Positions 12,523 through 36,308 of a stretch of 64,000 nt of DNA are shown piece after piece. Every line of letters starts with the position of its first letter. The stretch's first letter is position 1. The translations under genes and the position numbers were made by a program. Location: positions 1 to 64,000 of the IMG/VR virus record IMGVR_UViG_3300025387_000012; one strand, given 5' to 3'. The notes under the pieces are model-generated. The model did not search any database. It saw only the letters and a list, made by a program, of their open reading frames with translations, and was not told the DNA's origin. This DNA comes from a virus (Duplodnaviria; Heunggongvirae; Uroviricota; Caudoviricetes).

Positions 12523-12700
12523 CGGTCCCAAGGTAGGTGATCGAGTTCGCATTATGCACGACGTTCGCGTGCCAGCTGGCACCTACACGAAGGGTCATGA
12601 GTTCACAATCACGGGCTACAGCTTCCGCGGCCCTGACATGGTTGACGATGATGGTCGTCCGCTTTACGAAGCGTTCAACGTCACCATCGAAAAAATCTAA
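12506..12700 (+). CDS. hypothetical small protein
   Basis: GGAGA RBS before ATG 12506; 64 aa. Confidence 0.4.
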   Translation: MAFVPNGPKVGDRVRIMHDVRVPAGTYTKGHEFTITGYSFRGPDMVDDDGRPLYEAFNVTIEKI

Positions 12701-12706
12701 GGGCTG

Positions 12707-12735
12707 TTTACTTTTCCAGAGAAGCGTGTTACGAT
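12707..12735 (+). promoter_or_regulatory. promoter, conserved family variant (TTTACT-N17-TACGAT) driving long leader + CofD-like gene
   Basis: GGGCTGTTTACT. Confidence 0.45.
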
Positions 12736-12741
12736 CTTCTA

Positions 12742-12966
12742 ATGAGGATGTGTGCCCGAATCCCTTGATGGTCAAGACACACGTCCAATAGTCCGGAGGC
12801 TACCTCTGCCCGTAAGGGTGCAGTAACCAATCTGCTTAAACGCTAGACCACTGAGCGGTGTGGGCAAACCCGGCAAGTAGGTGGAAAGCCTACAACCTAT
12901 TTTTCTGATTGAACCTTTCCCGTAAATATGGGCGGGCCCGGAGGACGGGCGTAAAGGGAGAACACA
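12742..12966 (+). other. ~225-nt untranslated leader upstream of CofD-like gene (candidate structured regulatory RNA)
   Basis: No credible ORF; GC-rich repeated motifs CCGGAGG / CCCGTAA(G/A) (..CCGGAGGCTACCTCTGCCCGTAAGGGTG.. and ..CCCGTAAATATGGGCGGGCCCGGAGGACGGGCGTAAAGGG..). Confidence 0.35.
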
Positions 12967-14877
12967 ATGAACATCGTCATCCTCGCTGGTGGTACCGGCT
13001 CCATCGCCCTTCAGAAGGGTCTCTATGATCTGATCGACGCCCACTTCGATGGCATCGACACGAAGATCATCGTGAACGCCTATGACAATGGCCTTTCGAC
13101 CGGCGCGGTTCGACAGGTCATGGGCGGTCAAATCCTCGGTCCATCAGATGTCCGAAAGAACCAGACAACACGCCTGCAGCTCGAGGATCCAGAAAGTCCG
13201 TGGCACAACTTCCTCGGCATTCGATTTACGGCTCAAAGCTCTGAAGCCAAGGACTTCTGTGCGCGTGAGATCGACAAGCTTCGCGAAGCACTGACCCAGA
13301 AGAAGTCAGTAGCAGAAGCCGAGTTTGCTGTTCGCACTCTCTACCGCGCTCTAGATGTCTACTTTAGCGTTCCAGTTGCAACGAAGATCGACTACACCGA
13401 CTTCTCTCTTGCTAACATCATCTACGCCGGTCTTGCTCGCGCAAACAGAAACTCTCTTCGCGCTGCAGCATCCCACATGGCTGAGCTAATGGGCATCAAG
13501 GACAACGTCCTTCTCAATGATGACACGTCTCTCTTCCTCGGCGCCATTACTGAAAGTGGACGACGCATCACCGACGAAGGCGACATCGTCTCGTGGGGAA
13601 ACCTTGAAGACCCGTTCGTGGACATCTTCTTCACTGATGCAAATGGAAAGCCTTCTCGTCCAACTCTCTGTGATGAAGCATGGGACGCTCTCATCAATGC
13701 TGATCTGATCATCCTTTCATCTGGAACCCAGTGGTCCTCGCTGATCCCGACCTATGAGAGCATTCTCTTCCGTGAAGCGATGCACAAGGTCGCGGACATC
13801 GGACGAGCCAAGGTGCTGATGGTAATGAACCGCCAGCCAGACAAGGACAGCCCAGGTCAAGGCGCATCTGAGATCATCGAGCTCGTCGCGTCACGCTACT
13901 TCGCGCCAAAGCAGCTGCACGTTCTCATTGACGTGGAGGCTGATCCTATTATGCGAGAGATCACTGATGAGGCCGCTGACCTTGTCGCCGGCATCTATCC
14001 TTTTATCGGGCTTGATCTGTCCTTCATAACTGGCACTGAGAAAAAGGTTCACAACCCAGCGTTTCTGGCCAAGGCAGTATCCGAAACGTATTTCGGTGAT
14101 TACCTCAAGAGTGACTTCTTCATGTTCGACTACGATGACACTCTTGTCGGACGTGGCAACACAACTCCAAAGGCATCCAGCTTCAACATCAATGGCGTCG
14201 CCGGGCTTTCTCTGTTGGGTAAGGTTGCGATCTGCACGGGCAACTCTATCAAAGCCGTTAACCTTCGCACGCGCAATGCCTATCGCACACAGTCGATGCT
14301 CAGTCGACCACGTGTCACCGATCCTATGATCGTTTTTGCTGATGGTGGAGTGAATAAGTATCTCTACAATCCGATCATCACGGGGTATTCAAACACTGAT
14401 GATGACGATGCCATTCGATCGATCTTTGTTGAGTGCATCAACCCTGACTCTGTTATCCCGGCGACTGGAAAGCACAGCATCTCCACGATCATGTCATCAC
14501 TGATCAACAATGGCATTCCAATGTCGAAGATTGAGAATCGCGGTGGTGCCATGATCACGATTCGTCCAGTTGATACTGAGTATCGCAGGGCGCTGACAAA
14601 CTTCGTACAGCTTCTCACCAAGGGTTCAGGTCTTCTCGTCAGAGAAGCAGGTCGCTCGACTATCGAAATCCTCAACCCCAAGCTCACCAAGGTAGATGCT
14701 GTTCGGCACATCAAGCAGACTCTGAAGCCAGCCTCCATCACCTATGTGGGTGATGAGTTCAAGAGCGGTGGCAATGATGAGTGCATCAGGACAGTTGAAG
14801 GAGTGAAGTGTCTCGAAGTGAAGAACCCAGCACAGACCGCGTTTTTCATCAGCACGCTTCTGAACAGCCACCTATGA
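12967..14877 (+). CDS. CofD/YvcK (UPF0052)-like phosphotransferase domain fused to C-terminal HAD-like hydrolase domain
   Basis: N-term ILAGGTGSIALQKGL and VNAYDNGLSTGAVRQ match CofD/2-phospho-L-lactate-transferase family motifs; C-term FDYDDTL (HAD motif I), KVAICTGNS (motif II), GDEFKSGGND (motif IV). Preceded by ~225-nt leader. Confidence 0.6.
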   Translation: MNIVILAGGTGSIALQKGLYDLIDAHFDGIDTKIIVNAYDNGLSTGAVRQVMGGQILGPSDVRKNQTTRLQLEDPESPWHNFLGIRFTAQSSEAKDFCAREIDKLREALTQKKSVAEAEFAVRTLYRALDVYFSVPVATKIDYTDFSLANIIYAGLARANRNSLRAAASHMAELMGIKDNVLLNDDTSLFLGAITESGRRITDEGDIVSWGNLEDPFVDIFFTDANGKPSRPTLCDEAWDALINADLIILSSGTQWSSLIPTYESILFREAMHKVADIGRAKVLMVMNRQPDKDSPGQGASEIIELVASRYFAPKQLHVLIDVEADPIMREITDEAADLVAGIYPFIGLDLSFITGTEKKVHNPAFLAKAVSETYFGDYLKSDFFMFDYDDTLVGRGNTTPKASSFNINGVAGLSLLGKVAICTGNSIKAVNLRTRNAYRTQSMLSRPRVTDPMIVFADGGVNKYLYNPIITGYSNTDDDDAIRSIFVECINPDSVIPATGKHSISTIMSSLINNGIPMSKIENRGGAMITIRPVDTEYRRALTNFVQLLTKGSGLLVREAGRSTIEILNPKLTKVDAVRHIKQTLKPASITYVGDEFKSGGNDECIRTVEGVKCLEVKNPAQTAFFISTLLNSHL

Positions 14878-15671
14878 TCAAGAACGACCTCTTCATCATC
14901 GCAGCGGGCAAAGGCTCGCGAATGAAAACGAACGTGCCCAAGGCTCTCGTTCCAATCACTGACGAACCCTGCCTAACCACGACCCTTCAACAGGTCGCCC
15001 ATCGCTTTAACACCGTGCATCTCGTTACGAACAAGATGGTGCAGGACCAGTGGGAAGCCTACCTCGATGATCTCGCTGACAAATACCCAGAGCTAGCAGA
15101 GATAGTCGTTAACGTTCCGATAAACTCTGGACTTGGCGATGGTCATGCGACTCTCATGGGCATCAATGAAGCCGCTGAGATGTGCACGCTCTCATCCAAC
15201 GAGGTCGTGGTGGTCTGGGGAGACGTGTTCTTCCCCAACTCTGAGATCATGGACGAGCTGCTATCTCACGAGCTTCAAGGATCGGGACTTCTTCCTGCTG
15301 TAAGGGAAGACAACCCATACGTTTCACTTCTCGTTGATGAGCAGATGGCCTGCATCTCGGCCGACTTCTCCAAGTATGGTGAGACGCATCCTACCGGCTT
15401 TCACGACCAATCTGTCTTCCGCTTTAACCTTAGCCACCTCATCACGTCCTTGAACGCGCTTCACGCAGCATTCTGGAAGAATGGTCGCTACATTACCCCA
15501 GGCGGAGAGCTCTCACTTCTGTACACGTTCCACCATCTTTACAACACAGAATATCCGTGCTACGTGTATGAGACCGATTATCCCACGATGAGCTTCAACA
15601 CGGTTGAAGAGGTCGCCGACATCCAACAGGAGATAAAGAAGCGATGGACGTCAAAGCAAAGCCAGTCCTAG
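14874..15671 (+). CDS. MobA/CofC-like nucleotidyltransferase (sugar- or phospho-compound nucleotidylyltransferase)
   Basis: LFIIAAGKGSRM glycine-rich NTP-transferase loop; ATGA overlap with upstream CofD-like gene. Confidence 0.6.
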   Translation: MIKNDLFIIAAGKGSRMKTNVPKALVPITDEPCLTTTLQQVAHRFNTVHLVTNKMVQDQWEAYLDDLADKYPELAEIVVNVPINSGLGDGHATLMGINEAAEMCTLSSNEVVVVWGDVFFPNSEIMDELLSHELQGSGLLPAVREDNPYVSLLVDEQMACISADFSKYGETHPTGFHDQSVFRFNLSHLITSLNALHAAFWKNGRYITPGGELSLLYTFHHLYNTEYPCYVYETDYPTMSFNTVEEVADIQQEIKKRWTSKQSQS

Positions 15672-16309
15672 TTACCCTGACCGCACCGACCTGCTCTGGC
15701 AAGTCCCATCTGCTCAACCACATTCGTGCCGTTGGACTTCCCTGTCTTGTTTCGACAACGACAAGAAGGCCGCGTAAGGGTGAAGAGGAAGGGGTTGACT
15801 ACTACTTTATCTCTGACGAGGAGTCTCGTGAGATTGAAGCGAGAGATGGATTCGCTGAGCTGATGACCTACAATGGTTATCGCTATGGAGTTACGAAGGA
15901 AGAGTTTCATGATAAGCTTTCAAGGGGTCTCGCGTTTCTTATTGTGGAGCCGAAAGGTATTGACCACTACGTGCAGCCTGCTCTTGATGTTGGCGCCTCG
16001 CATGTAAAGCTGTTTGTCTTTGCTCCTCTAGAGGTCCGCGTTGAGCGCTTCAAGCAGCGTGTCGCCCGTGACCAAGCCGCCATTCTCCTTGCAGAGACCA
16101 GTGGCACGCCTCTCATGGAGCAGCTGAAATACCAGCGCGCTGAAGACACTCTCATGGCTCACATGAACCGCCTTGTCACGATGCTGACGACGGAGAGTGA
16201 TTGGCAGAGCCTAGTAGAATGGGATGAGGTCCTCGACGGGACAGACACTCCCGAACAAAATCTCCTCAACATCCTGGACACGGTACGCCGTAAACAGGAA
16301 GAGTGCTGA
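15644..16309 (+). CDS. guanylate-kinase-like nucleoside monophosphate kinase
   Basis: P-loop TAPTCSGKSHL plus TTRRPRKGEEEGVDYYFIS (classic Gmk TTRxxRxGExxGxDYxF motif). Confidence 0.65.
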   Translation: MDVKAKPVLVTLTAPTCSGKSHLLNHIRAVGLPCLVSTTTRRPRKGEEEGVDYYFISDEESREIEARDGFAELMTYNGYRYGVTKEEFHDKLSRGLAFLIVEPKGIDHYVQPALDVGASHVKLFVFAPLEVRVERFKQRVARDQAAILLAETSGTPLMEQLKYQRAEDTLMAHMNRLVTMLTTESDWQSLVEWDEVLDGTDTPEQNLLNILDTVRRKQEEC

Positions 16310-16343
16310 TCAAATCACGATCCAACCACGGGTAAATAAAACT

Positions 16344-16769
16344 ATGAGCACATCTGAAAACAACTGGGTGCAAGACATCCATGACATGCACACCAAGTTT
16401 GGTGTCCGTCCCGTAATCGCCGGCCTCAACAAGGAGAAGCTGGCAAAGTTCCTTGAGTTTCGTCTGAACTTCCTCCAAGAAGAGCTCGACGAAGCCAAGG
16501 AAGCTGCAGTCTCTGGCGATCCTTCCAAAGCAGAAGATGTAGTCGACGCAATGATTGACCTTTGCGTTGTTGCCATCGGAACGCTCGATGCTTTCGGTGT
16601 CGACGCGTATACTGCCTGGAACCGCGTTCATGAAAAGAACATGCAGAAAGAACCGGGCATTAAGCCAGAGCGTCCAAATCCTCTGGGTCTCCCCGATCTC
16701 ATCAAGCCAGCTGGCTGGACAGCTCCAACCCACGCTGACAATGTAGGCCTTCTCGACAAACTTTTCTAG
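16344..16769 (+). CDS. MazG-like all-alpha nucleotide pyrophosphohydrolase (candidate dCTPase)
   Basis: EExxExxDxxxDxxxYL-type MazG motif (LQEELDEAKEA...EDVVDAMIDL); in hmC phages such enzymes remove dCTP. Confidence 0.55.
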   Translation: MSTSENNWVQDIHDMHTKFGVRPVIAGLNKEKLAKFLEFRLNFLQEELDEAKEAAVSGDPSKAEDVVDAMIDLCVVAIGTLDAFGVDAYTAWNRVHEKNMQKEPGIKPERPNPLGLPDLIKPAGWTAPTHADNVGLLDKLF

Positions 16770-16776
16770 TCGGCTG

Positions 16777-16805
16777 TTTACATCCCATTAAAAATGTGAT
16801 ACGAT
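16777..16805 (+). promoter_or_regulatory. promoter, conserved family (TTTACA...TGTGATACGAT)
   Basis: CGGCTGTTTACATCC. Confidence 0.55.
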
Positions 16806-16829
16806 ACCCTAGTTAGAAAGGAGGCAATC

Positions 16830-17126
16830 ATGCTTCTTCTTGATGTGGTAGCGCTTGGCGCTGTCCTGTTTCTTCTCTGGATTTTGATCTTCCAAGTCTT
16901 GGTTCCCGTCATCAGTGGCCGTCCGCTGTTCCCTGCTTTTCGCAAGGACCCGCTGACCGTCAAGGTGGCGGCGACCCGCGATGTGGTGTCTAATCTAAAA
17001 GAGCAGAACGCCAATCTCACCGAACTGCAAACCCTGCTCTCTCAGCGTGCAAGCCTTGAAAAGCGAATCGCTGAACTCGAGAGCCCGCCGGCTGCCACCG
17101 GTGAAACCCAATCTCCTAAGGAGTAG
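16830..17126 (+). CDS. small membrane protein (NfeD-like partner of SPFH protein?)
   Basis: AAAGGAGG RBS; N-terminal TM helix; immediately upstream of SPFH gene. Confidence 0.5.
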   Translation: MLLLDVVALGAVLFLLWILIFQVLVPVISGRPLFPAFRKDPLTVKVAATRDVVSNLKEQNANLTELQTLLSQRASLEKRIAELESPPAATGETQSPKE

Positions 17127-17128
17127 AA

Positions 17129-18382
17129 ATGGCCGAAGGCAATGTTGTTAATCGCTTGGTGGGGAGAGGTGCTCTTATCACCGGTCTCGTCATCGGCGCA
17201 ATCGTTTTCTGCATCTTCGCGGTTCATCAATCATTCGTGAATGTTGACGCCGGCGAAATCGTTGTCATCCAGGCGCCAATCTCCGGTCAACTGACTGTCG
17301 TTTCCGATCCAGGTTGGAAGTGGCGCGGATTTGGTGCTGTGACTTCCTATCCTCGTCGTGCTCAGTTCAGCTTCTCTAGCAGAGCTGACCAAGGCAAGGA
17401 TGCTGATGAGTCTATCACCACCCGCTTCAACGACGGTGGTCACGCGAATATCTCTGGCACGATTAACTGGTCGATGCCTCTTTCGCCTGACAAGGTCATC
17501 GCGCTTCACAAGGACTTCCACTCCTTCCAAGCGATCGAACAGCAGCTCATTCGCACTCAACTTCAGAAGGTCATCTACAACGTTGGCCCGACGATGTCGT
17601 CGACTGAAAGCTCTGCCGAACGCAGACCGGAAATCCCGAAGTACATCGACGACCAAATGGTCAACGGTCCTTATCTGACCCGTACGGTTCAGCAGATGAT
17701 CGACGATCCTATCACCAACCAACCGAAGCAAGTTGCTGTTGTCCAAATCGCAACCGGTGCCGACGGCCGCCCTCTGCGCGAATCGATCTCGCAGATCAGC
17801 CGCTACGGCATTATCCTGCAGCCCGTCTCGATCAACCAGATCAAGTACGACGATGTTGTTGAAAACCAGATCAAGCAGCGTCAAGACGCTACCACTCAGG
17901 TTCAGATCAGCATCGCCAACGCCAAGAAGGCTGAGCAGCAAGCGATCACCACCGCCAAGGAAGGTGAAGCTGCAGCCGCAAAAGCCAAGTGGGAGCAGGA
18001 AACTTTGAACGCCAAGGACATCGCCGAAGCTGAGAAGAACAAGCAGGTTGCTGAACTTGCCGTGGCTACTGCCGCTGCAAAGAAGCAAGCCTTGATCCTC
18101 GAAGGTGAAGGTGAAGCTGCGAAGCGGAAGGCAATCCTTCTCGCCGACGGCGCCTTGGAAAAGAAGCTCGATGCGTATGTCAAGGTCAATGAAGCCTATG
18201 CAGACGCAATCAAGAATGCCAATGCCGGCGCATGGACCCCATCGGTCATCATGGGCGGCGCAGGTGGTGGCAATCAAGTCCACTCAGGCGCATCTTCTCT
18301 GGTCGACATGCTGACCGCGAAGACCGCATCTGAACTCGGACTGGATCGCACGATCACGCAAGGCGCAAAAGCTAAGCACTAA
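17129..18382 (+). CDS. SPFH/band-7 (prohibitin/HflK-like) domain membrane protein
   Basis: N-terminal TM then VDAGEIVVIQAPISGQLTVVSDPGWKWRGFGAVTSYPRRAQF typical band-7 start; C-terminal Ala/Glu/Lys-rich coiled coil; followed by terminator. Confidence 0.6.
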   Translation: MAEGNVVNRLVGRGALITGLVIGAIVFCIFAVHQSFVNVDAGEIVVIQAPISGQLTVVSDPGWKWRGFGAVTSYPRRAQFSFSSRADQGKDADESITTRFNDGGHANISGTINWSMPLSPDKVIALHKDFHSFQAIEQQLIRTQLQKVIYNVGPTMSSTESSAERRPEIPKYIDDQMVNGPYLTRTVQQMIDDPITNQPKQVAVVQIATGADGRPLRESISQISRYGIILQPVSINQIKYDDVVENQIKQRQDATTQVQISIANAKKAEQQAITTAKEGEAAAAKAKWEQETLNAKDIAEAEKNKQVAELAVATAAAKKQALILEGEGEAAKRKAILLADGALEKKLDAYVKVNEAYADAIKNANAGAWTPSVIMGGAGGGNQVHSGASSLVDMLTAKTASELGLDRTITQGAKAKH

Positions 18383-18407
18383 GCTCAGCGCCATCAACGA
18401 CTAAGAG

Positions 18408-18441
18408 AGTGGGAGCCTTAACCGGCTCCCACTTTTCGTTT
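18408..18441 (+). terminator. rho-independent terminator after SPFH gene
   Basis: AGTGGGAGCC-ttaacc-GGCTCCCACT then TTTTCGTTT. Confidence 0.75.
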
Positions 18442-18469
18442 GAGCAGGGATAAATAGTCGTACAACTCT

Positions 18470-19981
18470 TTGCCCCCTGGGATCACAATGAAACTATTCG
18501 ACCTTCACGAAGAAAAGAAAGCCTCCTCAGGGATGGCGCTTTCTAAGATCGTCTCCTACATCAGCCGTAAGATCGGCGTTGAGCTGTTGCGTATCCCTGG
18601 CGTGGAACACTTCCACAACTCCAAGGAGAACGGTTACGGTCTCCGCTATGTCGAAGCAGGTTCAACTCGCTGCATTCGTTTGAACTGGAACTCTGGAAGC
18701 GCAGCTTCTGGCGGTAAGATCAGCGATCTTTCGTCCATCGACGTCTTCTCTGGTAAGAACCACGATCCTACCTACACCATCTCTACGAAGGGTATTTCGA
18801 TCGTTCACGCTCTTCCAATGGTTGTTGCGATGCTGCAGGACCCATCGATTGGTAAGCACTTTGCATTCCCTGTCTCTGCTGAAATGGCTCTGTCAGAAGC
18901 GGTCCTCCTTGAAGTTGCTCGTGATGAGTACACTTCTGAAGGTGCACTCACAGACTTCCTCCATCAGCTGGCAAGCGGCAAGTCCTTTACCCGCTCTGAG
19001 TTCATTCAGCGCTACCACATCGTCCATGTCGGCATCTTCGACACGATCTATGACGACTTTGCTGATCGCTTCATCATTCGTGGTAAGCGTATCTCCCTCG
19101 CAAGCAATCAGAATCTGGACAGCCTGAAGGACAGCATTCTTTCCAAGGCTGGCGTCGTTGAGGTCAGCAAGGGCGGTACCAAGGAGGTCTACTTTAAGTC
19201 TCCTCAGGAAGAAGAACTTGAGAAGGAGGGCGGTGGCCAAAAGGTTCCTTACGCCGACACTCTCGAACACCTTGAAGGTCTGGTACAGGCCCTCATCAAG
19301 GGTTCCTTCAACGCACTGTTCGTTGCAGGTAAGGGTGGTACCGGTAAGACTCAGACCGTTGAGCGCGTGCTTCACTCTGCTGGTCTTACCGATGGTCATG
19401 GCTATTACAAGAACACCGGTTCAGCTTCTGCTGCCGGTGTTTACACCCTGCTCTACCATCACCGCAACGACATCATCCTCTTCGACGACTCCGATGGTGC
19501 ACTCGCCGACCAAGATGCTCGTAACCTGATCAAGGCTGCTACCGACACCAAGAAGTCTCGTAAGCTGGTTTGGAACAAGCGTTCCTCATTCATCTTCGAT
19601 CCAGAGTCTGAGGATCCAGATGCCTACGAAGGCGATCTGTCAATGGCTCCTAAGTACTTCGACTTCAAGGGTCGTATCATCTTCATCTCGAACCTTCCAC
19701 TGAACAAGCTGGACCCAGACGGTGCACTTCGCACCCGCGCGTTCATCATCAACGTCGATCCAACTGATGATGAGATGTTCGACTACATGGGCAAGATTCT
19801 CGACGACATCAAGCTTGAAGATGGTCTGACTCTTTCCAAGGAAGAGAAGGAACACGTCCTCACCGTCGTTAAGACGTCCAAGCGTAAGGGTGACGTATCC
19901 CTTCGTAAGCTCGTTCGCGCTCTCAACCTTGCCGCATCGGGGGCGCCAAACTGGGAAAAACTGGTTGAGTTGTACGCCTGA
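18470..19981 (+). CDS. P-loop NTPase of unknown function (paralog of 23110..24075)
   Basis: Walker A FVAGKGGTGKTQTV, Walker B ILFDDSDG, shared C-terminal block FDFKGRIIFISNLPLNKLDP with paralog; alternative start ATG 18488. Confidence 0.6.
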   Translation: MPPGITMKLFDLHEEKKASSGMALSKIVSYISRKIGVELLRIPGVEHFHNSKENGYGLRYVEAGSTRCIRLNWNSGSAASGGKISDLSSIDVFSGKNHDPTYTISTKGISIVHALPMVVAMLQDPSIGKHFAFPVSAEMALSEAVLLEVARDEYTSEGALTDFLHQLASGKSFTRSEFIQRYHIVHVGIFDTIYDDFADRFIIRGKRISLASNQNLDSLKDSILSKAGVVEVSKGGTKEVYFKSPQEEELEKEGGGQKVPYADTLEHLEGLVQALIKGSFNALFVAGKGGTGKTQTVERVLHSAGLTDGHGYYKNTGSASAAGVYTLLYHHRNDIILFDDSDGALADQDARNLIKAATDTKKSRKLVWNKRSSFIFDPESEDPDAYEGDLSMAPKYFDFKGRIIFISNLPLNKLDPDGALRTRAFIINVDPTDDEMFDYMGKILDDIKLEDGLTLSKEEKEHVLTVVKTSKRKGDVSLRKLVRALNLAASGAPNWEKLVELYA

Positions 19982-20037
19982 CGGAATAAAACAGCACTTC
20001 TCTATAAATACCTCCAAGGAAACTTAGGAGGTATTTT

Positions 20038-21297: not shown

Positions 21298-21311
21298 AAG
21301 GAAAATCACAA

Positions 21312-21698: not shown

Positions 21699-21719
21699 GT
21701 CAACCTGACCATTATATAA

Positions 21720-21755
21720 TAGGGGCTCTGGGACATTCTCAGGGCCCCTTTTCCT
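21720..21755 (+). terminator. rho-independent terminator
   Basis: AGGGGCTCT...AGGGCCCCT stem (1 mismatch) + TTTTCC. Confidence 0.6.
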
Positions 21756-21756
21756 G

Positions 21757-21784
21757 TGTACATTCCCGCAGGACGTGATATTAT
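21757..21784 (+). promoter_or_regulatory. promoter, family variant (TGTACA-N16-TATTAT)
   Basis: CCTGTGTACATTCC. Confidence 0.5.
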
Positions 21785-21790
21785 AGCTTC

Positions 21791-23038: not shown

Positions 23039-23043
23039 AGCTG

Positions 23044-30146: not shown

Positions 30147-30247
30147 TCGACTTCTTTAAGAACATCATCTACCAAATCAAGAGCAAGATTAAGTACCACC
30201 AAAAGATGAAAGAAATCCGCAAGAGGGACCCGTATATCTACAAATGA
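30143..30247 (+). CDS. micro-ORF (34 aa, Lys-rich) translationally coupled on both sides
   Basis: ATGA overlaps with both neighbouring genes fill the 97-nt gap exactly. Confidence 0.25.
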   Translation: MIDFFKNIIYQIKSKIKYHQKMKEIRKRDPYIYK

Positions 30248-30939
30248 TTAAGGTCATCAGCAAATCTTCATCTGATCAAATCTACGCCAACACTTCCTAT
30301 ATCTTCTACAGAAGCTCTGTTGAAAACGGAAGTCTAATCTTTGGTGGTAACTTTGACAGGCTCGTGTACGTCGTGGATGGTGCTTTTACCGTTCAGGGCC
30401 ACGCACTTGAGCCCGGCGATACGGTGCAAATCAAGGGTCGCGTAACGTCTGTTGATGGCACTGGCACGCTCTACGTAGCGCAAGCCGCCATCCCGCATGA
30501 AGACATTCAGCAAATCGTCAAGATCACCAGGGCAGGTGCTCACTACAAGGTAGTGAAGCCGTGGGGCCATGAGCTATGGCTCAACGGCGAAGGTGCTCCA
30601 TTCTGCGCGAAGAAGATCTTCATCAAGGCCGGAAATCAGACAAGCCTGCAGTACCACAACTTCAAGGAAGAGACCAACCTTGTAGAAGATGGTCAGGTTG
30701 TTCTTGTCACGCAAGCAGACATGTCTGTCGCCATCGATGATGTGCAATCGCAGCATCTCCAAGAAACCACATTCGCTGGTCCAGTCTGCTTTCACGTTAT
30801 ACCTCGCACCATTCACAGACTGCGAGCCATTACTGACCTTAACCTTTTCGAAGTCTCTACACCGCATCTCGATGATGTCATTAGACTTCAAGATGATGCT
30901 AATCGTTCACACGGACGTATAGATAGCGAGCACCAATGA
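30244..30939 (+). CDS. cupin-fold sugar(-phosphate) isomerase-like protein
   Basis: KPWGHELWL motif typical of type II phosphomannose-isomerase/cupin sugar isomerases; conserved His/Gln (SLQYHNFKEE). Confidence 0.55.
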   Translation: MIKVISKSSSDQIYANTSYIFYRSSVENGSLIFGGNFDRLVYVVDGAFTVQGHALEPGDTVQIKGRVTSVDGTGTLYVAQAAIPHEDIQQIVKITRAGAHYKVVKPWGHELWLNGEGAPFCAKKIFIKAGNQTSLQYHNFKEETNLVEDGQVVLVTQADMSVAIDDVQSQHLQETTFAGPVCFHVIPRTIHRLRAITDLNLFEVSTPHLDDVIRLQDDANRSHGRIDSEHQ

Positions 30940-32444
30940 AGACCGTCGTACTCCTCACCGCTGGCACTGGAACTCGGATGGGGAAGTATTCGAGCGTCAT
31001 CAACAAGACGTTGCTTCCTATCAAAGACAAGGCGATCATCTCTCACATTATTTCTCAGTTTGATGCTGACACCGAGTTCGTAGTTGCGCTTGGTTACAAG
31101 GGCGACATGGTCAGAACCTACCTTGAGCTTGCCCATGAGACATCCAAGTTTACCTTCGTTGAGGTAGAAGACTTCGATGGTCCCGGTGCAGGTCCAGCGC
31201 AATCCCTCATTCAGTGCCGCGACAAGCTCAACGGTCCATTCTACATCATCGCGTGTGACGCCCATTACGAAGGGCTAAACAACATTGATGAGAGCACCAA
31301 CGTTGTTTGCGTTGCGCCAGTAAGCATCGAGCTTTCGCCGGCCTACTGCAATGTTGAGCTAGATGGATCAAGAATATCCAAGATCGTTGACAAGCAGTAC
31401 TGCACGAGTGGACTGGCTGTCAGTGGTGCGTTCTTCATCAAGGACACCGAACCTTTCTGGAACGCTTTGACTGGATCTGAGCTCTCGACCGGATGGTCTG
31501 TCCTTGAGACCCACGCCGTCGAACTGCCATGGCACGACCTTGGCACCTTCGACAAGTACCAAGCCTTCTACCTTGAGAACTCTCCCTATGACTTTAGCAA
31601 GACCGATGAGTTCCTCTACATCATCAATGGTAGAGTGATCAAGTGGTTCAGGGACAAGACGATCACTGACAACCGCGTCCTCCGTATTCAGGGTCGTGAG
31701 CACCTCTTCCCAACGATTGACTTCCAAAAGGACGGCTTCTACTCCTACAAGTTTGTGCCAGGTGAAGTACTCTATCAGTGCGTTACTCCTCAAATCTTTG
31801 AAGACTTCCTGAAATGGATGTCGTTTGAAGTATGGCCAGTTCGTCGAAGCACAAGCGTCAGACTTACTAACGCAATGTGCCGTGACTTCTACTATACGAA
31901 GACCATGAAGCGCTTGGATATGTTCCGTGACAAGTATCCAGACTTCAACCCCAAAGTCATTAACAATCAGGTGATGAAGGTTGACATGGACAATGGGTTG
32001 AAGCTCATTAACTGGAAAGCAGTCTGTGAAGAAGAGATGTACCAACGCTCTGCCTTTATTCACGGTGACTTGCAGTTTGACAATGTCATCTACGATGGTA
32101 GCAAGTTTACCATCCTTGACTGGCGCCAAGACTTTGCGGGCAATCTTCAGGTTGGCGATCTCTACTACGATGCTGCAAAGCTGCTTGGTGGCATGATCCT
32201 TAACTACGACCTCATCCGTCAAAACCAGTTCAGATTTACTGAAGACGGCGACAGCTGCACCTTCGCATACACCGCGCGTCATGAGTATCAGCCCCTTCGC
32301 GAAAGACTTCAGCACCTGCTGCCAAGTCCTATCATCGACGATCTTATCACGATCATCTTCCTCAACATGGCCCCGCTGCACTCAGCTCCCTTTGACAAGC
32401 TGCTCTACTGCCTGGCATTGGAGCGTCTCAATGGACTTGCTTGA
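30936..32444 (+). CDS. bifunctional sugar-phosphate nucleotidyltransferase / APH-ChoK-type kinase
   Basis: N-term VVLLTAGTGTRMG (sugar-1-P NTP-transferase G-loop); C-term HGDLQFDNVIYDGSKFTILDWRQDFAG (Brenner motif HGDxxxxN + DxxF of aminoglycoside/choline kinase fold). Confidence 0.65.
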   Translation: MKTVVLLTAGTGTRMGKYSSVINKTLLPIKDKAIISHIISQFDADTEFVVALGYKGDMVRTYLELAHETSKFTFVEVEDFDGPGAGPAQSLIQCRDKLNGPFYIIACDAHYEGLNNIDESTNVVCVAPVSIELSPAYCNVELDGSRISKIVDKQYCTSGLAVSGAFFIKDTEPFWNALTGSELSTGWSVLETHAVELPWHDLGTFDKYQAFYLENSPYDFSKTDEFLYIINGRVIKWFRDKTITDNRVLRIQGREHLFPTIDFQKDGFYSYKFVPGEVLYQCVTPQIFEDFLKWMSFEVWPVRRSTSVRLTNAMCRDFYYTKTMKRLDMFRDKYPDFNPKVINNQVMKVDMDNGLKLINWKAVCEEEMYQRSAFIHGDLQFDNVIYDGSKFTILDWRQDFAGNLQVGDLYYDAAKLLGGMILNYDLIRQNQFRFTEDGDSCTFAYTARHEYQPLRERLQHLLPSPIIDDLITIIFLNMAPLHSAPFDKLLYCLALERLNGLA

Positions 32445-33237
32445 TGTAGTTAAAACGGCAGGTGACGAGATCATCTGCGCGTCCCTCAGCCAGAAGCCAG
32501 GAAAGTTTGGAGCGACCATCCACAACGCCGGCTTCAAGCACCTTGGCCTAAACTATCGCTATGTCGGCTGCGCCGAAACCAATATCGAGCGCGGACTTCA
32601 GATCGCCAGAGAGCATGGCGTTCGCGGAGTAGGCATCTCAATGCCATTCAAGGTCGCCGCCCTCAACCTTATGGACGAGGTTCATGATACAGCGCTGTTC
32701 GCTGGAGCAGTAAATACAGTCGTAAATGATAACGGTTGGCTGACGGGATACAATACTGACGTTGCTGGCTTTAGCGCTCTTGCAGAGGAAGCAAACCTCC
32801 AGCGAGACGATCGCATCTGCATCCATGGATCAGGTGGGGTAGCTAGAGCCGTTCTTGTTGCGCTCAAGGATTACTCGGACGTGTCTATCTACGCCAGAAA
32901 CCAGCGTGAAGCTGCTGTTCTTGGCGACAAGTATGGCCGTCCTGTCTACCACTTTACCCATCCTAAGCGTGAACACGGTGCGGTCATTAACTGCACTCCA
33001 GTCGGTATGAATGATGAAGTTATCAGTTTCATTGACCTTGACGCCATGACAAAGTTCATCGACGTAATCGTGAAAGAAACGCCAAACGTTAGAGCGGTAA
33101 GAGCAGCTGGAAAGCCAGCCTTTACCGGCGAGACTATGGCTCTTCATCAAGCGTTTGCCCAGTTTGAGCTCTACACAGGTGTTAAGGCCCCAACCGAAGA
33201 AATGGTAAGAGCCCTAAATGCTGCATCCCAAACTTAG
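32431..33237 (+). CDS. shikimate/quinate dehydrogenase (AroE)-like NAD(P)-dependent oxidoreductase
   Basis: SLSQKPGKFGATIHNAGFKHLGLNYRY, GISMPFKVAAL, GAVNTVVNDNGWLTGYNTDVAGF - canonical AroE substrate-domain motifs; Rossmann GSGGVARA. Confidence 0.6.
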   Translation: MDLLDVVKTAGDEIICASLSQKPGKFGATIHNAGFKHLGLNYRYVGCAETNIERGLQIAREHGVRGVGISMPFKVAALNLMDEVHDTALFAGAVNTVVNDNGWLTGYNTDVAGFSALAEEANLQRDDRICIHGSGGVARAVLVALKDYSDVSIYARNQREAAVLGDKYGRPVYHFTHPKREHGAVINCTPVGMNDEVISFIDLDAMTKFIDVIVKETPNVRAVRAAGKPAFTGETMALHQAFAQFELYTGVKAPTEEMVRALNAASQT

Positions 33238-33703
33238 GCACTTCGTTGTTGACGTCGATGGCGTCATGACTACCGGACAGTTCATCTACACAGCTGACGG
33301 AAAGGTAGGTAAAGTGTTTGGGCCACATGACAGCGACGGCCTAAAGCTTATCAAGCATCTCATCAACATCCAGTTCATAACTGCAGACCAACGTGGCTTT
33401 GACATCTCAAAGAAACGCATCGTTGATGATATGGGTTATCCGTTGACCCTTGTCACTGAAGCAGAGCGCGAGAGCTACATTGAGCAGCTCGGGTTTGACT
33501 TCACGGCGTTTATGGGAGATGGCTACTACGACGCACCTGTCCTTCAGAAGTGCGCTATTGGCATCGCTCCAGCCAGTGCGCGCTATGAAGCAAAACGCGC
33601 CGCACGTTTCATAACGAGTTCACGGGCAGCTGAAGGCGCCTTGATGGACGCGTGCATCTATCTCAAGGGTATCCTGACACATGAGTACGACAAAGAAGAT
33701 TGA
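33218..33703 (+). CDS. KdsC-like HAD phosphatase (sugar-phosphate phosphatase)
   Basis: FVVDVDGVMTTGQFIY (DxDGVxTDG), ITADQRGFDISKKRIVDDMG, FMGDGYYDAPVLQKC (GDxxxD) as in Kdo-8-P phosphatase family. Confidence 0.65.
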   Translation: MLHPKLRHFVVDVDGVMTTGQFIYTADGKVGKVFGPHDSDGLKLIKHLINIQFITADQRGFDISKKRIVDDMGYPLTLVTEAERESYIEQLGFDFTAFMGDGYYDAPVLQKCAIGIAPASARYEAKRAARFITSSRAAEGALMDACIYLKGILTHEYDKED

Positions 33704-34697
33704 ACTTGAAGTTGGCATCGGGCCTATGAGCCTTGAAGTCATCGACGCGGTAGTGAAGTACGCGAACAAGAGAGATCGTGACCTCATGCTTATCGCCTCG
33801 CGTAACCAAATCGAGTGCGAGACGCTCGGCAGCGGTTATGTTGGTGGCCTGCACTCGAAGACCTTTGTTGACTATGTTCGCGGTAGAGACATGGATCGTC
33901 GCGTAAAGATTTGCCGCGACCACTGTGGTCCATACCTTCACGCTGCTGAGAAAGGCATGTCATATGAAGAGGCCATGGAGCGCGTCATCGAAAGTCTGAA
34001 GACCGACATGACCTGTGGCTTCGATCTTATCCACGTCGACACCTCGCTTGCTCCAGACCCTTACAAAGCGGCTGAGCTTATGTTCTCGACCCTTGAAAGG
34101 TCTAAGCGCGATCTCGAGTATGAGTTCGGCACCGAGGACAACGTGGGCACAGCTGTCTCCGCAAAGAAGTTTGAGCACGACATTCTGTTCGTAAAGCAGT
34201 TCGTCAACCCTCGCTTCGTCGTTGGTCAGACCGGCTCGCTCGTTAAGAGCATCCATCAGGTTGGTACCTTCGCTCCTGACACCGTCAAGCAGCTGGTTGA
34301 AATCGCCAACAAGCATAGCGTGAAGCTCAAGGAGCACAACGCAGATTACATCTCGCACGCTGAAGTCAATGAGCGCAAGAAGCTTGGTGTTGGTGCTATC
34401 AACGTAGCACCAGAGTTTGGTGTTGCTCAGACGCAGGTCCTGATCGAGCTTGCCAACCGTTGGAGACTTGAAGATGAGCTGAACAAGTTCATGAAGGTCG
34501 TCGTCAAGGGTGGCAAGTGGAAGAAGTGGAAGCACGGCACCGACTGGGATGACAAGCTGAAGTTCCTTTCCGCAGGTCACTACCACTTCACATCTCCCGA
34601 GTACATCCGCCTGGTTGACATGATCAACCAAAAGGAAAAGTTCGGTGCGGCAGTCGAGAAGAAGATCTTCAAGCTGATCGACAACTATGCAAAATGA
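33681..34697 (+). CDS. GatZ/KbaZ-like (tagatose-bisphosphate aldolase/kinase family) protein
   Basis: Collinear motifs with GatZ: GIGPMSLEVIDAV, LMLIASRNQIECETLGSGYVGGL, ICRDHCGPY, LIHVDTSL. Confidence 0.55.
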   Translation: MSTTKKIELEVGIGPMSLEVIDAVVKYANKRDRDLMLIASRNQIECETLGSGYVGGLHSKTFVDYVRGRDMDRRVKICRDHCGPYLHAAEKGMSYEEAMERVIESLKTDMTCGFDLIHVDTSLAPDPYKAAELMFSTLERSKRDLEYEFGTEDNVGTAVSAKKFEHDILFVKQFVNPRFVVGQTGSLVKSIHQVGTFAPDTVKQLVEIANKHSVKLKEHNADYISHAEVNERKKLGVGAINVAPEFGVAQTQVLIELANRWRLEDELNKFMKVVVKGGKWKKWKHGTDWDDKLKFLSAGHYHFTSPEYIRLVDMINQKEKFGAAVEKKIFKLIDNYAK

Positions 34698-35464
34698 AGG
34701 TTGCGGTCTGCATAAGCGGTCAGCTTAGGACTGGCCTTCGGTGTCTAGAAAATCAAGCTCACTTCTTGAGAGGGCTTGATGCAGACTTCTTCCTACATAC
34801 GTGGTCTACCAACACCAACAAGCGCTTTCCTCGCGATCATGAAGAGACACCTGTACCTCGTCAGGTCATAAAGGACTATGTCTCTGCTCTGAAGCCAAAG
34901 CGCTGGACGTTTGAAGATCAGCACCTCAACTTTAGAGGTGGCAAGGACATCGCGCCAGTAGCCCTTCACTATTCTTGGATGAAGAGCGTTCAGCTCAAGC
35001 AAGAGCATGAGCGTCACACAGGTGTCAGCTACGACGCAGTCATCAAGATCCGTCCTGACCTTCTTCTCAGGCCAGAAAGAAATCCAGCGTCAAGCATTCT
35101 CGAGAAGGTTTATGGTAAGCGCAAGCTCATCATTGAAAACATTCCTGAGTGGTGGAAGGTTATGGATTGGCATGATGATGTCATGTGGTTTGGTGACAAT
35201 GAGACCATGAACATGGCGACTGAATACTTTCAGCAGACCTATGTCGAGCGCACCAATGCTGAAGCATTTGGCTTCTTCGCAGACAAGAGAGGTGTTGATG
35301 TTGATGGCACCTATGAGTTCTCTTATGCCGTCTATCGAAAAGAATGCGAGCACTTTGACCCAATGACTCAATATGAAGAGTGCTTCGAGTGCGAGACACA
35401 CTACACCAGTACAGCGTGCACAACCTTGGCAACACCTGAAGAATCTCCGGACTACTACTCATGA
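34694..35464 (+). CDS. uncharacterised 'AVCLSGQxRTW' family protein, paralog 3
   Basis: MKVAVCISGQLRTG, YDAVIKIRPDLL, DDVMWFGDNETM. Confidence 0.55.
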   Translation: MKVAVCISGQLRTGLRCLENQAHFLRGLDADFFLHTWSTNTNKRFPRDHEETPVPRQVIKDYVSALKPKRWTFEDQHLNFRGGKDIAPVALHYSWMKSVQLKQEHERHTGVSYDAVIKIRPDLLLRPERNPASSILEKVYGKRKLIIENIPEWWKVMDWHDDVMWFGDNETMNMATEYFQQTYVERTNAEAFGFFADKRGVDVDGTYEFSYAVYRKECEHFDPMTQYEECFECETHYTSTACTTLATPEESPDYYS

Positions 35465-36294
35465 GGATTGCTCTTTGCTACAGCGGCCAGATCCGCACAG
35501 GTCGAAAGTGCATTGAAAACCAGATCAGGTTTCTCGGTGAGCACGCGAAGGCTGACACCTTCCTCCACACGTGGACCCACAACTCCAATCGAAAGTTCCC
35601 AGGCATCCGCGGAATAACCAGGGTACCACAGGAGCAGATTGACAGCTACGTTCAAGAGCTGAACCCAATCGCTTCTTTGGTTGAGGATCCAATCGAGCGT
35701 GGTATCTACGCAGCTCACGCTGCTTACTGGCCGCCTGCTCAGTCTCTCTTCTATTCGTGGCGTGAAAGCATCCGCATCATGCACGAGTATGAAGAGCAGA
35801 TGGGAATCAAGTACGACGTTGTCGTCAAGCTGCGCCCCGACATTATCTTCTCAGATCGTTGGAGACTAGAAGACGACCTTGAAGCTGCCGCGAGTGGAAA
35901 GTTTCTCATTCCCAAGTTGACGCACAATCCAACTTGGATGGATGATGAAAGAATCTACGATGACTTCTTTGTAACTACTGGCGACAACATGCGCAAGGCT
36001 CTTGGCTTCTACACGGAAGCTTTTGAGGACAAGACAACAGGTCACATTAACTTCGGCAGATGGCTGCACGATAATGGCATGTCTCCTGAGATGCCGTCAC
36101 GCTCCGAGTTCATGATCTACCGAAAGGAAGCCCAGGACCTTAACCCAATGGTGGACTACGACAAGATCGCTGTAGGCCTTACGCGACTGCGAGCCACAGG
36201 CCCATTCTTCTACAACGATCCCAACGCTAGGGTTAACCCTGATGCCGCGGTCATTATCATCCAGCCTGGTGAAAGCGCCGACTATTACAAATAG
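35461..36294 (+). CDS. uncharacterised 'AVCLSGQxRTW' family protein, paralog 4
   Basis: MRIALCYSGQIRTG, YDVVVKLRPDII, DDFFVTTGDNMR. Confidence 0.55.
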   Translation: MRIALCYSGQIRTGRKCIENQIRFLGEHAKADTFLHTWTHNSNRKFPGIRGITRVPQEQIDSYVQELNPIASLVEDPIERGIYAAHAAYWPPAQSLFYSWRESIRIMHEYEEQMGIKYDVVVKLRPDIIFSDRWRLEDDLEAAASGKFLIPKLTHNPTWMDDERIYDDFFVTTGDNMRKALGFYTEAFEDKTTGHINFGRWLHDNGMSPEMPSRSEFMIYRKEAQDLNPMVDYDKIAVGLTRLRATGPFFYNDPNARVNPDAAVIIIQPGESADYYK

Positions 36295-36308
36295 GCTGTT
36301 TACAATCT

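Follow-up and report, generated by a model that had tools for sequence, protein, structure and literature searches.

Gene layout of the region

The stretch of DNA analysed here (called the window below) comprises positions 1 to 64,000 of the IMG/VR virus record IMGVR_UViG_3300025387_000012, a member of the Caudoviricetes, and our subject is a train of enzyme genes that lies in it together with genes for the synthesis of 5-hydroxymethylcytosine (hmC). The window matches exactly a 285,248-bp ENA metagenome contig (ERZ27271998 k141_59194), which is of jumbo-phage scale. No near-identical DNA was found for the region by megablast among 50,697 phage records. Judged by topoisomerase II, the nearest isolates are the Ralstonia jumbo phage RsoM2USA (49.6% identity) and the Xanthomonas phages BUDD and X1, and the window phage is a distant relative of RsoM2USA.

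The gene train is tightly packed, occupies 4849–36879 on the + strand and is flanked on its left by virion structural genes on the − strand (509–4717). Within it we distinguish two groups of genes: module A (5905–16769, + strand), which holds the genes for hmC synthesis along with genes for a beta-glucosyltransferase (BGT)-like protein, a CofD/YvcK-like domain fused to a HAD domain (CofD/HAD below) and a nucleotidyltransferase; and module B (25343–36294, + strand), which holds genes for predicted glycosyltransferases, SGNH-like proteins and enzymes of sugar metabolism. In all likelihood the two are unrelated and functionally independent: module A is well supported as a smaller candidate DNA hypermodification unit, and module B is an independent and widespread viral glycan cassette. 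They are best described as variants of hmC glycosylation and of virus-encoded glycan synthesis, respectively.

The initial annotation of this DNA had read genes of both groups as one candidate hypermodification island of 23.6 kb. The hmC genes that it named (a gp42-like hydroxymethylase, a BGT homologue and nucleotide kinases) are all present where it placed them, on the + strand and with significant family matches, and searches of Pfam, NCBIfam and PDB bore out every one of its domain assignments. It had also counted about 17 enzymes as foreign to ordinary phage replication. The genes are there; the count nevertheless includes a metallophosphoesterase (36334–36879, + strand, PF00149), which is a common phage gene and probably outside both modules (a concatenated query including it matched 1,689 phage records, and the metallophosphoesterase is behind most of the rows listed), as well as the MazG-like and guanylate kinase-like (Gmk) genes, which, like the deoxynucleoside monophosphate (dNMP) kinase gene, can be ordinary members of an hmC nucleotide pathway.

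Module A: probable hmC synthesis and the BGT-like protein

The gene at 5905–6675 (+ strand) encodes a thymidylate synthase (TS) homologue, a dCMP hydroxymethylase of the T4 gp42 type that matches the PDB entry 1b49 with an E value of 1.8e-70, compared to 5.5e-9 for the best true TS. Because the protein is 49–52% identical to the T-even hydroxymethylases and only ~24% identical to the 5-hydroxy-dCMP synthases of RB69/HY126/Mosigvirus type, the window phage, judging from sequence, very probably makes hmC. The low identity to the latter enzymes also led us to reject a reading of this gene as a 5-hydroxy-dCMP synthase. In the alignment, the protein is identical to the T4 enzyme at RSND (with Asp at the position of N177 in Escherichia coli ThyA) and at SDFMC (with Asp at the position of L143). 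The Asp at the N177 position accounts for cytosine specificity, an acidic residue at the L143 position for the access of water, and the RB69-type TS homologues make 5-hydroxy-dCMP, not hm-dCMP (PMC13326640). The TS homologue of RsoM2USA also has the cytosine-specific Asp.

Three further genes on the + strand can serve the nucleotide pool. They encode a gp1-like dNMP kinase (9404–9994; Pfam AAA_28 and Thymidylate_kin), a Gmk (15644–16309; PF00625, 2.3e-13) and a MazG-like NTP pyrophosphohydrolase (16344–16769; PF01503, nearest PDB entry DR2231) that probably excludes dCTP/dUTP.

The BGT-like protein (10721–11842, + strand) is a predicted DNA glycosyltransferase of the GT-B fold. It matches PF09198 with an E value of 3.3e-15 (56.6 bits, for a cut-off of 27) and PDB entry 1bgt with an E value of 2.2e-32. 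In the alignment with 1bgt (CDPEL/TDIRL, MRGGKRE/FRSGQRE, QRAYES/LRVWET), the catalytic Asp100 and the nucleotide-binding Arg/Glu positions are aligned; in the T4 BGT structures, Asp100 has the catalytic role and the Arg/Glu residues contact UDP. By profile and motif, the protein belongs to the T4 beta-glucosyltransferase family. The initial annotation spoke of a phage that already makes glucosyl-hmC: the hmC part of this statement very probably holds, while the glucose part is unproven.

Between the dNMP kinase gene and the BGT-like gene sits a gene for a nucleoside 2-deoxyribosyltransferase-family protein (10254–10712, + strand; PF05014, 1.5e-10), which is also present in one of the related loci (L008). 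The co-presence of this gene and of a gp42-type hydroxymethylase gene recalls the MilA/MilB pair (hydroxymethylase and N-glycosidase).

Module A: the CofD/HAD fusion and its nucleotidyltransferase

The core of module A is a 636-residue protein (12967–14877, + strand) in which a CofD/YvcK-like transferase domain (PF01933, 6.6e-17) is fused to a phosphatase or mutase domain of HAD subfamily IIB. The structure model is confident (pLDDT 90) and displays the UPF0052/FbiA/CofD fold joined to an HAD-IIB fold, in agreement with the Pfam assignment. The HAD domain has the features of the IIB (Cof) subfamily, namely intact motifs I (DxDxT), II (T/S), III (K) and IV (GDxxxxxGND) and a cap-2 fold, and all four motifs are invariant across 42 homologues. 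The NCBIfam matches of the CofD-like domain are all YvcK-related (53 bits, for a cut-off of 196), and its PDB sequence matches are UPF0052 proteins. Family searches of the window revealed no F420 genes (CofC, CofE or a CofG/H context). We therefore rejected a reading of the fusion as a true F420 CofD (EC 2.7.8.28), on account of the YvcK-like signature and of the missing F420 context.

The following gene (14874–15671, + strand) encodes a MobA/IspD/TarI-like nucleotidyltransferase (PF12804, 3e-11) whose closest PDB relatives are the ribitol-5-phosphate cytidylyltransferase 4jis and IspD. The two genes overlap by 4 nt (14874–14877). On a 6.6-kb ENA contig, a single protein (P0084, 895 residues) has a nucleotidyltransferase, 60% identical to that of the window gene, fused in frame to CofD/HAD; given the 4-nt overlap in the window, this longer fusion could also be a sequencing or gene-calling artefact.

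Distribution and genomic context of module A

The CofD/HAD family has at least 548 homologues, on contigs of up to 368 kb. An alignment-seeded scan of IMG/VR yielded 37 CofD/HAD loci; with those fetched earlier, 39 loci were examined. For these, as for the loci of module B described below, neighbours were counted within 10 kb. A BGT-like gene lies upstream of CofD/HAD in 36 of the 39 loci and a nucleotidyltransferase gene is adjacent in 37, and the order BGT-like, CofD/HAD, nucleotidyltransferase is kept even though the identity of the CofD/HAD proteins to that of the window falls from 57% to 25%. The same neighbourhoods contain a TS homologue (23/39), a dNMP kinase (24/39), a Gmk (19/39) and a MazG-like gene (14/39). 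The same set occurs in RsoM2USA, where it is spread over the ends of the linear record, and in LR756500, a 462-kb uncultured phage.

This conservation is strong comparative evidence that the BGT-like, CofD/HAD and nucleotidyltransferase proteins form one functional unit, which would be tied to cytosine modified at C5. No description of this trio came up in the literature searches, and those for a link between CofD and phage DNA modification, or for AfhE beyond one paper, returned nothing useful.

Outside viruses, a scan of GTDB genomes located the CofD/HAD fusion only in contigs of metagenome-assembled genomes (MAGs). In Firmicutes MAG contigs, the nucleotidyltransferase and CofD/HAD genes persist as a pair without BGT. 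In two such loci (L141 and L144), the pair adjoins genes for a Wzx-type flippase and a family 2 glycosyltransferase (GT2), the first of them also having a LicC/LicA-like nucleotidyltransferase–kinase fusion. In a third (L139; Eubacterium MAG contig CAJTSV010000026.1, 2896–9785), genes for a nucleotidyltransferase–phosphoenolpyruvate (PEP) mutase fusion, an Fe-alcohol dehydrogenase and a thiamine pyrophosphate (TPP)-dependent decarboxylase lie directly upstream of the pair. PEP mutase, TPP decarboxylase and Fe-alcohol dehydrogenase constitute the standard route to a phosphonate head group, and this last context points to a glycan as the place where the CofD-like enzyme would put a head group of phosphonate type. 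More generally, the MAG contexts suggest a unit that may couple a head group to the hydroxyl of a glycan through a phosphate or phosphonate link.

Gene anatomy of module B

Module B opens and closes with genes for predicted glycosyltransferases: two paralogues at 25343–26110 and 26097–26903, and two more at 34694–35464 and 35461–36294 (all + strand). Their products belong to an undescribed family of the GT-A fold recognizable by the motif AVCLSGQxRTW; all four fit in one alignment and share 11 invariant residues with 41 homologues. Among the invariant positions are E123, D131, R137 and D139. The fold, Rossmann-like and of GT-A type, is well supported. The family is structurally closest to Mnn9, GT6 and giant-virus proteins, and among viral proteins the model finds its nearest structural counterparts in giant viruses and cyanophages, for example Catovirus, Fadolivirus, Tupanvirus, a chlorovirus and S-SKS1. 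The paralogues have no Pfam match above threshold and fall in a PHROG of unknown function; indeed, the PHROG matches of the key proteins are all to families so annotated.

Four SGNH-like paralogues follow the first pair of glycosyltransferase genes on the + strand. They form two pairs: one of the DUF6071 type (26903–27802 and 29325–30146; PF19547, 2.5e-14 and 2.8e-17), for which literature searches gave no paper, and one of a second type (27795–28577 and 28574–29350; Lipase_GDSL_2, below threshold for one of them). The Ser of the GDS motif, a Ser-Asn pair and a His are invariant, and the Asp of block V is missing. All four proteins begin directly at the catalytic GDS block.

The remaining genes of module B, on the same strand, would supply an activated sugar. 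They encode a cupin that resembles the C-terminal part of type-II phosphomannose isomerase and is a putative sugar-phosphate isomerase (30244–30939; PF01050, 1.3e-5; phrog_7851); an AfhE-like bifunctional enzyme comprising a sugar kinase of the APH fold and a sugar-1-phosphate nucleotidyltransferase (30936–32444; PF12804 and PF01636); an AroE-like oxidoreductase of the SdhL class of shikimate dehydrogenase-like enzymes, putatively a keto-sugar or cyclitol reductase (32431–33237; PDB 1npy, i.e. HI0607, 1.3e-45), from a family that includes the 5-ketofructose reductase 7cok; a KdsC-type HAD sugar-phosphate phosphatase (33218–33703; TIGR01670, 2.5e-12); and a GatZ/KbaZ-like protein of the class-II aldolase superfamily, putatively a ketose-phosphate epimerase or aldolase (33681–34697; PF08013, 9e-9). 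Together, the cupin, KdsC-like, GatZ-like and SdhL-like proteins plausibly provide a route from a central sugar phosphate to a nucleoside diphosphate (NDP)-activated rare sugar or polyol. A search of viral contigs with the AfhE-like fusion as single query found no relatives.

All the enzymes of modules A and B are soluble: no hydrophobic or membrane segment was detected in any of them, and no Wzx or Wzy flippase or polymerase, polyprenyl-phosphate transferase or signal peptide was found among the proteins of the two modules. A system for an exported polysaccharide was rejected because of this lack of membrane components. The isoelectric point, considered as a hint of DNA binding, was discarded as uninformative, the BGT-like enzyme itself being acidic.

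Distribution of module B and its independence from module A

With the GT-A alignment as seed, a scan of IMG/VR yielded 352 hits or more, and 79 loci were examined. DUF6071 proteins are encoded near the GT-A genes in 64 of these, the second SGNH type in 42, AfhE-like fusions in 35, cupins in 34, AroE-like proteins in 31, GatZ-like proteins in 29 and KdsC-like phosphatases in 13. Elsewhere than in the window, the cassette may contain up to eight GT-A paralogues in one locus, and other recurrent neighbours are a GT47-like protein, further glycosyltransferases, a carbamoyltransferase, methyltransferases and a cytidylyltransferase.

The two modules do not accompany each other: no hydroxymethylase, BGT, CofD/HAD or dNMP kinase gene was found within 10 kb in any of the 79 GT-A loci, and no GT-A, SGNH or AfhE-like gene within 10 kb in any of the 39 CofD/HAD loci. 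In RsoM2USA and LR756500, which both carry module A, module B was not found. In the window itself, the TS homologue lies 19 kb from module B, and the interval between the modules (16830–25217) is occupied by unrelated genes. Hence the idea of a single island of some 17 enzymes acting on DNA is not supported, and the co-occurrence with gp42 and BGT that had been proposed as a check is seen for module A (BGT in 36/39 and TS in 23/39 loci) and not, within 10 kb, for module B (0/79). A 343-kb contig related to the window phage (66% identity for the hydroxymethylase, 74% for BGT and 47% for CofD/HAD) carries a GT-A/DUF6071/carbamoyltransferase cassette at least 43 kb away from module A, in the context of the gene families c10 and c4 and near a homologue of the 1402-residue structural protein of the window.

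Clustering of the neighbours at the 79 loci brought out a recurrent same-strand block with, in this order, c16, fib11, fib9, c10, c4, radical SAM, several GT-A, DUF6071/SGNH, AfhE-like and cupin, AroE-like, HAD, GatZ-like and carbamoyltransferase genes. Fibre-like genes are visible in 28 loci, and in every one of these they precede the cassette on its own strand. The fib11 proteins match a virion structural PHROG and contain a Peptidase_G2 intramolecular-chaperone domain; the fib9 proteins consist of 26% Ser and Thr, and this family has no match among isolated phages. The window itself contains the N-terminus of an S/T-rich, fib9-like protein on the − strand, which starts near position 475, is cut by the window edge (fib9 representatives match 475–41 with 32% identity, E 3e-6) and may be an acceptor for module B. 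A second neighbour context comprises a methyltransferase, GT2 and fusions of GT7 with LamG. When uncultivated viruses were searched with fib9 (at least 542 hits), they were seen to share the same-strand fibre-like block followed by tandem radical-SAM arrays (up to five or more), and where the flank is long enough, GT-A and DUF6071 genes come next (L156–L193; e.g. L165, 14.7–19.9 kb).

The sugar pathway of module B is a swappable cassette, since its genes are replaced in a related locus of the window clade (L009; IMGVR_UViG_3300012943_000030, 14122–17593): there, the slot from cupin to GatZ holds a nucleotidyltransferase, a 322-residue unknown protein, a sugar-phosphate cyclase resembling dehydroquinate (DHQ) synthase and a short-chain dehydrogenase/reductase (SDR), which gives the pathway a cyclitol flavour. 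Among isolated phages, only faint GT-A homologues were found, in cyanophages. In the carbohydrate-gene cluster of S-SM2, the GT-A homologue adjoins a cupin annotated as 'cysteine dioxygenase', which is the description of the PHROG matched by the window cupin. An unrelated 66-kb fragment of Marine virus AG-345-E15 (MH319741.1; L023, 11898–19011) combines a GT-A homologue and a cupin with an AfhE-like fusion (30% identity) and a GatZ-like gene adjoining the latter; its first 40 kb yielded neither a hydroxymethylase nor a BGT homologue.

Comparison with known systems

With the T4 hmC pathway, the window shares an orthologous hydroxymethylase (~50% identity, specificity residues kept), a gp1-like kinase, a MazG-type NTPase in place of gp56, and the aligned catalytic Asp and Arg/Glu residues of BGT. 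It differs in the firm coupling of its BGT-like gene to two genes that T-even phages do not have, those for CofD/HAD and for the nucleotidyltransferase, and in that no alpha-glucosyltransferase is seen in the window.

Module B follows the logic of the Afh pathway for arabinosyl-5-hydroxycytosine (RB69, DLP3, HY126), in which AfhE is a bifunctional sugar kinase/UDP-sugar pyrophosphorylase (PMC13326640). Both comprise an isomerase, a kinase, a phosphatase, a nucleotidyltransferase and several glycosyltransferases, which bears out the sequence of activities that the initial annotation had recognized. The fusion at 30936–32444 has the domain order of AfhE and aligns with it end to end: its residues 1–444 are collinear with HY126 AfhE (E 2e-6, HGD motif aligned). 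By contrast, the identity is just 22%, the isomerase of the window is a cupin instead of an arabinose-5-phosphate isomerase of the SIS type, and its KdsC-type phosphatase has no detectable similarity to AfhF. The window has extra SdhL-like and GatZ-like enzymes, its glycosyltransferases are of GT-A and not of GT-B type, the cassette is not beside a TS homologue and the base is hmC, not 5-hydroxycytosine. In sum, the features of an Afh-type system that the window presents are the bifunctional nucleotidyltransferase and the APH-like kinase; the SIS-type isomerase, the AfhF-type phosphatase, the GT-B enzymes and the clustering with TS were not found.

The phage GT-A and GT-B gene clusters described by Pyle et al. 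(bioRxiv 10.1101/2023.12.21.572611; including contig 53), which place mono-, di- or trisaccharides on 5hmC, resemble module A in the coupling of a GT-B enzyme of BGT type to a nucleotidyltransferase and to a bifunctional enzyme with a HAD domain, in the repurposing of enzymes of envelope-glycan synthesis and in the association with a ThyS homologue. In the window, the partner of the HAD domain is a CofD/YvcK-like domain and not an APH kinase, and a text search of that study returned no mention of CofD or UPF0052. The GT-A enzymes of that study resemble JGT and TarP, unlike those of the window with their similarity to Mnn9, GT6 and giant-virus proteins.

As with CofD/FbiA and CofC, the CofD-like enzyme of the window is paired with a MobA-type nucleotidyltransferase, and the nearby Gmk is consistent with GMP release. 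The differences are the absence of F420 genes, the YvcK-like signature, the HAD-IIB fusion and the partners, which are a DNA glycosyltransferase in phages and Wzx/GT2/phosphonate genes in MAGs. Virus-encoded protein glycosylation (capsid or fibrils of chloroviruses and mimivirus, XacN1, S-SM2) has in common with module B soluble GT-A enzymes, virus-encoded nucleotide-sugar pathways and, in many viruses, adjacency to fibre genes; in the window clade, on the other hand, the cassette sits among DNA-metabolism genes, and neither this GT-A family nor DUF6071 nor the sugar pathway has a characterised member. As for the serotype-conversion and envelope-glycan systems (Gtr, Oac, Wzx/Wzy), Pfam and hydrophobicity analyses disclosed no membrane transferase, flippase or lipid-carrier step.

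Proposed function of module A

The pathway that we infer for module A would run as follows. The gp42-type enzyme would make hm-dCMP, and the MazG-like enzyme together with the dNMP kinase would shift the nucleotide pool in favour of hm-dCTP. Once the DNA has been replicated, hmC would receive a sugar from the BGT-like GT-B enzyme. The MobA/IspD-like enzyme would activate a compound X-P (a sugar, alditol or acid phosphate) as NDP-X, and the CofD/YvcK-like domain would move P-X from this donor to a hydroxyl of the DNA-bound sugar, nucleoside monophosphate (NMP) being released. The fused HAD-IIB domain would strip the leftover phosphate, according to the synthase/phosphatase logic of trehalose-6-phosphate and mannosyl-3-phosphoglycerate synthesis, and Gmk would recycle GMP. 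In CofD chemistry, NDP-X reacts with the hydroxyl of an acceptor to give X-P-O-acceptor and NMP, and GMP release is established for EC 2.7.8.28. Because CofD-type reactions release GMP, the extra Gmk would gain a role.

A modification that goes beyond plain glucosyl-hmC, as proposed in the initial annotation, is plausible on the side of module A because of the close and widespread linkage of the CofD/HAD and nucleotidyltransferase genes to that of the BGT-like transferase; as to module B, the absence of hmC genes within 10 kb at all 79 loci speaks against its being a writer of DNA. We consider it likely that module A acts on DNA. That its characteristic step is a phosphodiester transfer is a possibility we put forward with some doubt, and several observations weigh against it. 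The CofD-like domain bears the DxGxSxGxxR signature of YvcK and is nearer in sequence to YvcK/GlmR than to CofD; YvcK/GlmR is described as a UDP-GlcNAc-binding regulator and an accessory uridyltransferase, the latter in Listeria (PMC10128056), and transfer of a phospho-X group is not among the roles given. Phosphomannomutase and alpha-phosphoglucomutase are among the top structural matches of the HAD domain, which may therefore be a mutase in the service of donor synthesis. There is also a precedent, since a BGT-like GT-B enzyme, a bifunctional HAD/APH enzyme and a cytidylyltransferase together produce Kdo-5hmC (Pyle et al., bioRxiv 10.1101/2023.12.21.572611), and the Afh pathway has the order kinase, HAD phosphatase, nucleotidyltransferase. 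These points would all fit a module confined to donor supply: the HAD, CofD/YvcK-like and nucleotidyltransferase activities would make an unusual nucleotide-sugar, and the BGT-like enzyme would put a single non-glucose sugar on hmC, with no phosphodiester involved. We regard this reading, the main alternative, as rather unlikely. Indeed, the UDP-contacting Arg/Glu positions of T4 BGT are kept, in which case UDP-glucose from the host would suffice; in MAGs, the pair accompanies head-group pathways (phosphonate, LicA/C-like) that need a transferase and not a further activation enzyme; and the extra Gmk is in keeping with NMP release.

A bolder combination is a phosphodiester-linked substituent (a sugar-1-phosphate, an alditol phosphate or a phosphonate-type head group) written by module A on the sugar of glycosyl-hmC and extended by module B, in the window clade, to an O-acylated oligosaccharide. 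Such a teichoic acid-like DNA glycan, of which we found no description as a class of DNA modification in the literature searched, seems quite improbable.

Proposed function of module B and alternatives

For module B, we propose that the cupin, GatZ-like and SdhL-like enzymes would act on a sugar phosphate of central metabolism to give the phosphate of a rare sugar or of a polyol, from which the AfhE-like kinase, the KdsC-like phosphatase and the AfhE-like nucleotidyltransferase domain would yield an NDP-sugar. The four GT-A enzymes would build an oligosaccharide, to which the four SGNH-like proteins would add, or from which they would trim, O-acyl groups. The acceptor would be an S/T-rich, fibre-like virion protein rather than DNA. 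Such acceptors are known: giant viruses glycosylate capsids and fibrils, and the virions of XacN1 contain glycoproteins (PMC5852040), XacN1 belonging to the same clade as RsoM2USA (PMC8504454).

We hold the virion protein only tentatively as the acceptor of module B and find DNA an unlikely one, the rest of the weight being on other acceptors; the account with two modules taken as a whole is our best explanation, and is tentative too. It has to contend with a number of facts. In the window clade (L019, L021, L027 and L009), module B is kept inside the early + strand train of DNA-metabolism genes and lacks the partners that it has in other loci (radical SAM, c4, c10 and carbamoyltransferase). 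The linkage to fibre genes could be explained by a shared insertion hot spot alone, and the 10-kb flanks of the fib9-seeded loci contain mostly tandem radical-SAM paralogues, GT-A genes being present in 7 of 51, with many loci cut by the flank limit. Moreover, phage GT-A enzymes put di- and trisaccharides on 5hmC in DNA (10.1101/2023.12.21.572611), and activation of the AfhE type is known from a DNA pathway (PMC13326640).

Several of these facts would be accommodated by one DNA hypermodification system, in which BGT would place glucose on hmC, module A would add a phosphodiester group, the GT-A enzymes would build an oligosaccharide from a phage-made NDP-sugar and the SGNH proteins would O-acylate it. 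All the genes lie in one + strand train with replication and nucleotide genes, an arrangement kept in the four loci just named; the enzymes are cytoplasmic and soluble; the AfhE-like fusion shares its architecture with the DNA-arabinosylation enzyme; and the phage GT-A enzymes that act on 5hmC co-occur with APH-type kinases and secondary glycosyltransferases. We nonetheless judge a single system improbable, given the lack of any cross-occurrence within 10 kb (0/39 and 0/79), the existence of genomes with module A and without module B, the related hmC phage that keeps its GT-A cassette far off in a structural context, and the ~8 kb of mobile or unrelated genes and the strong hairpin between the modules. 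In addition, up to eight GT-A paralogues per locus, with carbamoyl- and methyltransferases elsewhere, are easier to reconcile with a glycan on a protein or polymer than with an adduct on a base. The cluster of homing-endonuclease genes just upstream of module B in the window suggests an insertion hot spot, and the two modules would lie ~10 kb apart by chance, in a plastic stretch of the early gene train that is rich in such genes. Remodelling of the host envelope (lipopolysaccharide, capsule or teichoic acid) by module B or by the whole region, in the style of lysogenic conversion or superinfection exclusion, would account for the distant homologues in the S-SM2 carbohydrate cluster, one of which is annotated as 'capsular polysaccharide biosynthesis protein', and for the MAG homologues of module A in Wzx/GT2 polysaccharide clusters. 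It is very unlikely in view of enzymes devoid of membrane segments, of the flippase, polymerase, polyprenyl-phosphate glycosyltransferase and signal peptide that were looked for and not found, of SGNH proteins that start right at the catalytic block and of a window in which no lysogeny genes were detected. A soluble glycoside or cyclitol-type metabolite as the product of module B is hardly to be expected either: the SdhL/AroE-type dehydrogenase and the DHQ synthase-like cyclase and SDR in the same slot of L009 would suit it, and NDP-cyclitol chemistry occurs in aminocyclitol pathways, yet a macromolecular acceptor is favoured by the several glycosyltransferase paralogues and by the position of the cassette in many viruses, close behind virion genes and on their strand, and no exporter was found.

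These assignments matter because the hypermodifications of phage DNA govern which restriction, CRISPR and modification-dependent defences a phage evades, and because they are a source of enzymes for epigenetic sequencing. The trio of module A recurs across 39 or more divergent jumbo-phage loci, and one phage that has it, RsoM2USA, is in culture; if its CofD-like domain does add a phosphodiester-linked group, this would be new DNA chemistry. The GT-A/DUF6071/SGNH/AfhE-like cassette, with its 352 or more IMG/VR hits, represents a viral glycan system of wide occurrence that is entirely uncharacterised. The results also call for caution: closeness to hmC genes alone is no proof that a sugar cluster targets DNA.

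Other features of the window

The virion structural genes at the left of the window (1–4717, − strand) include the gene for the 1402-residue structural protein (509–4717) and match PHROGs for head-decoration, structural and virion structural proteins. The genes between the modules (16830–25217, + strand), assigned by Pfam and transmembrane segments, belong to neither: they encode an SPFH/Band-7 pair (a transmembrane protein and an SPFH protein), two AAA-type ATPases, NUMOD3, GIY-YIG and HNH homing endonucleases, and small open reading frames (ORFs).

There are five genes of the homing-endonuclease type in the window (NUMOD3, GIY-YIG, HNH, HNH/NUMOD3 and GIY-YIG), at 20038–22620 (+ strand), 39140–39832 (− strand) and 48188–48814 (− strand). 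Three of the five fall between modules A and B and mark a plastic zone. The same interval has a terminator-like element (21721–21749, + strand) made of a 13-bp GC-rich hairpin and a T-run, and a sigma-70-like promoter-like site (11/12) at 23044–23071 (+ strand). The numbers of sites in the promoter and terminator scan of the window were not above those of shuffled controls, and no operon structure can be claimed.

Finally, the genes for the large and medium subunits of topoisomerase II (39854–44699) are split in the window by an ORF on the − strand (41778–42527). In phage LR756500, the large subunit is itself in two pieces, with a homologue of this ORF between them (L026, 8387–11990).

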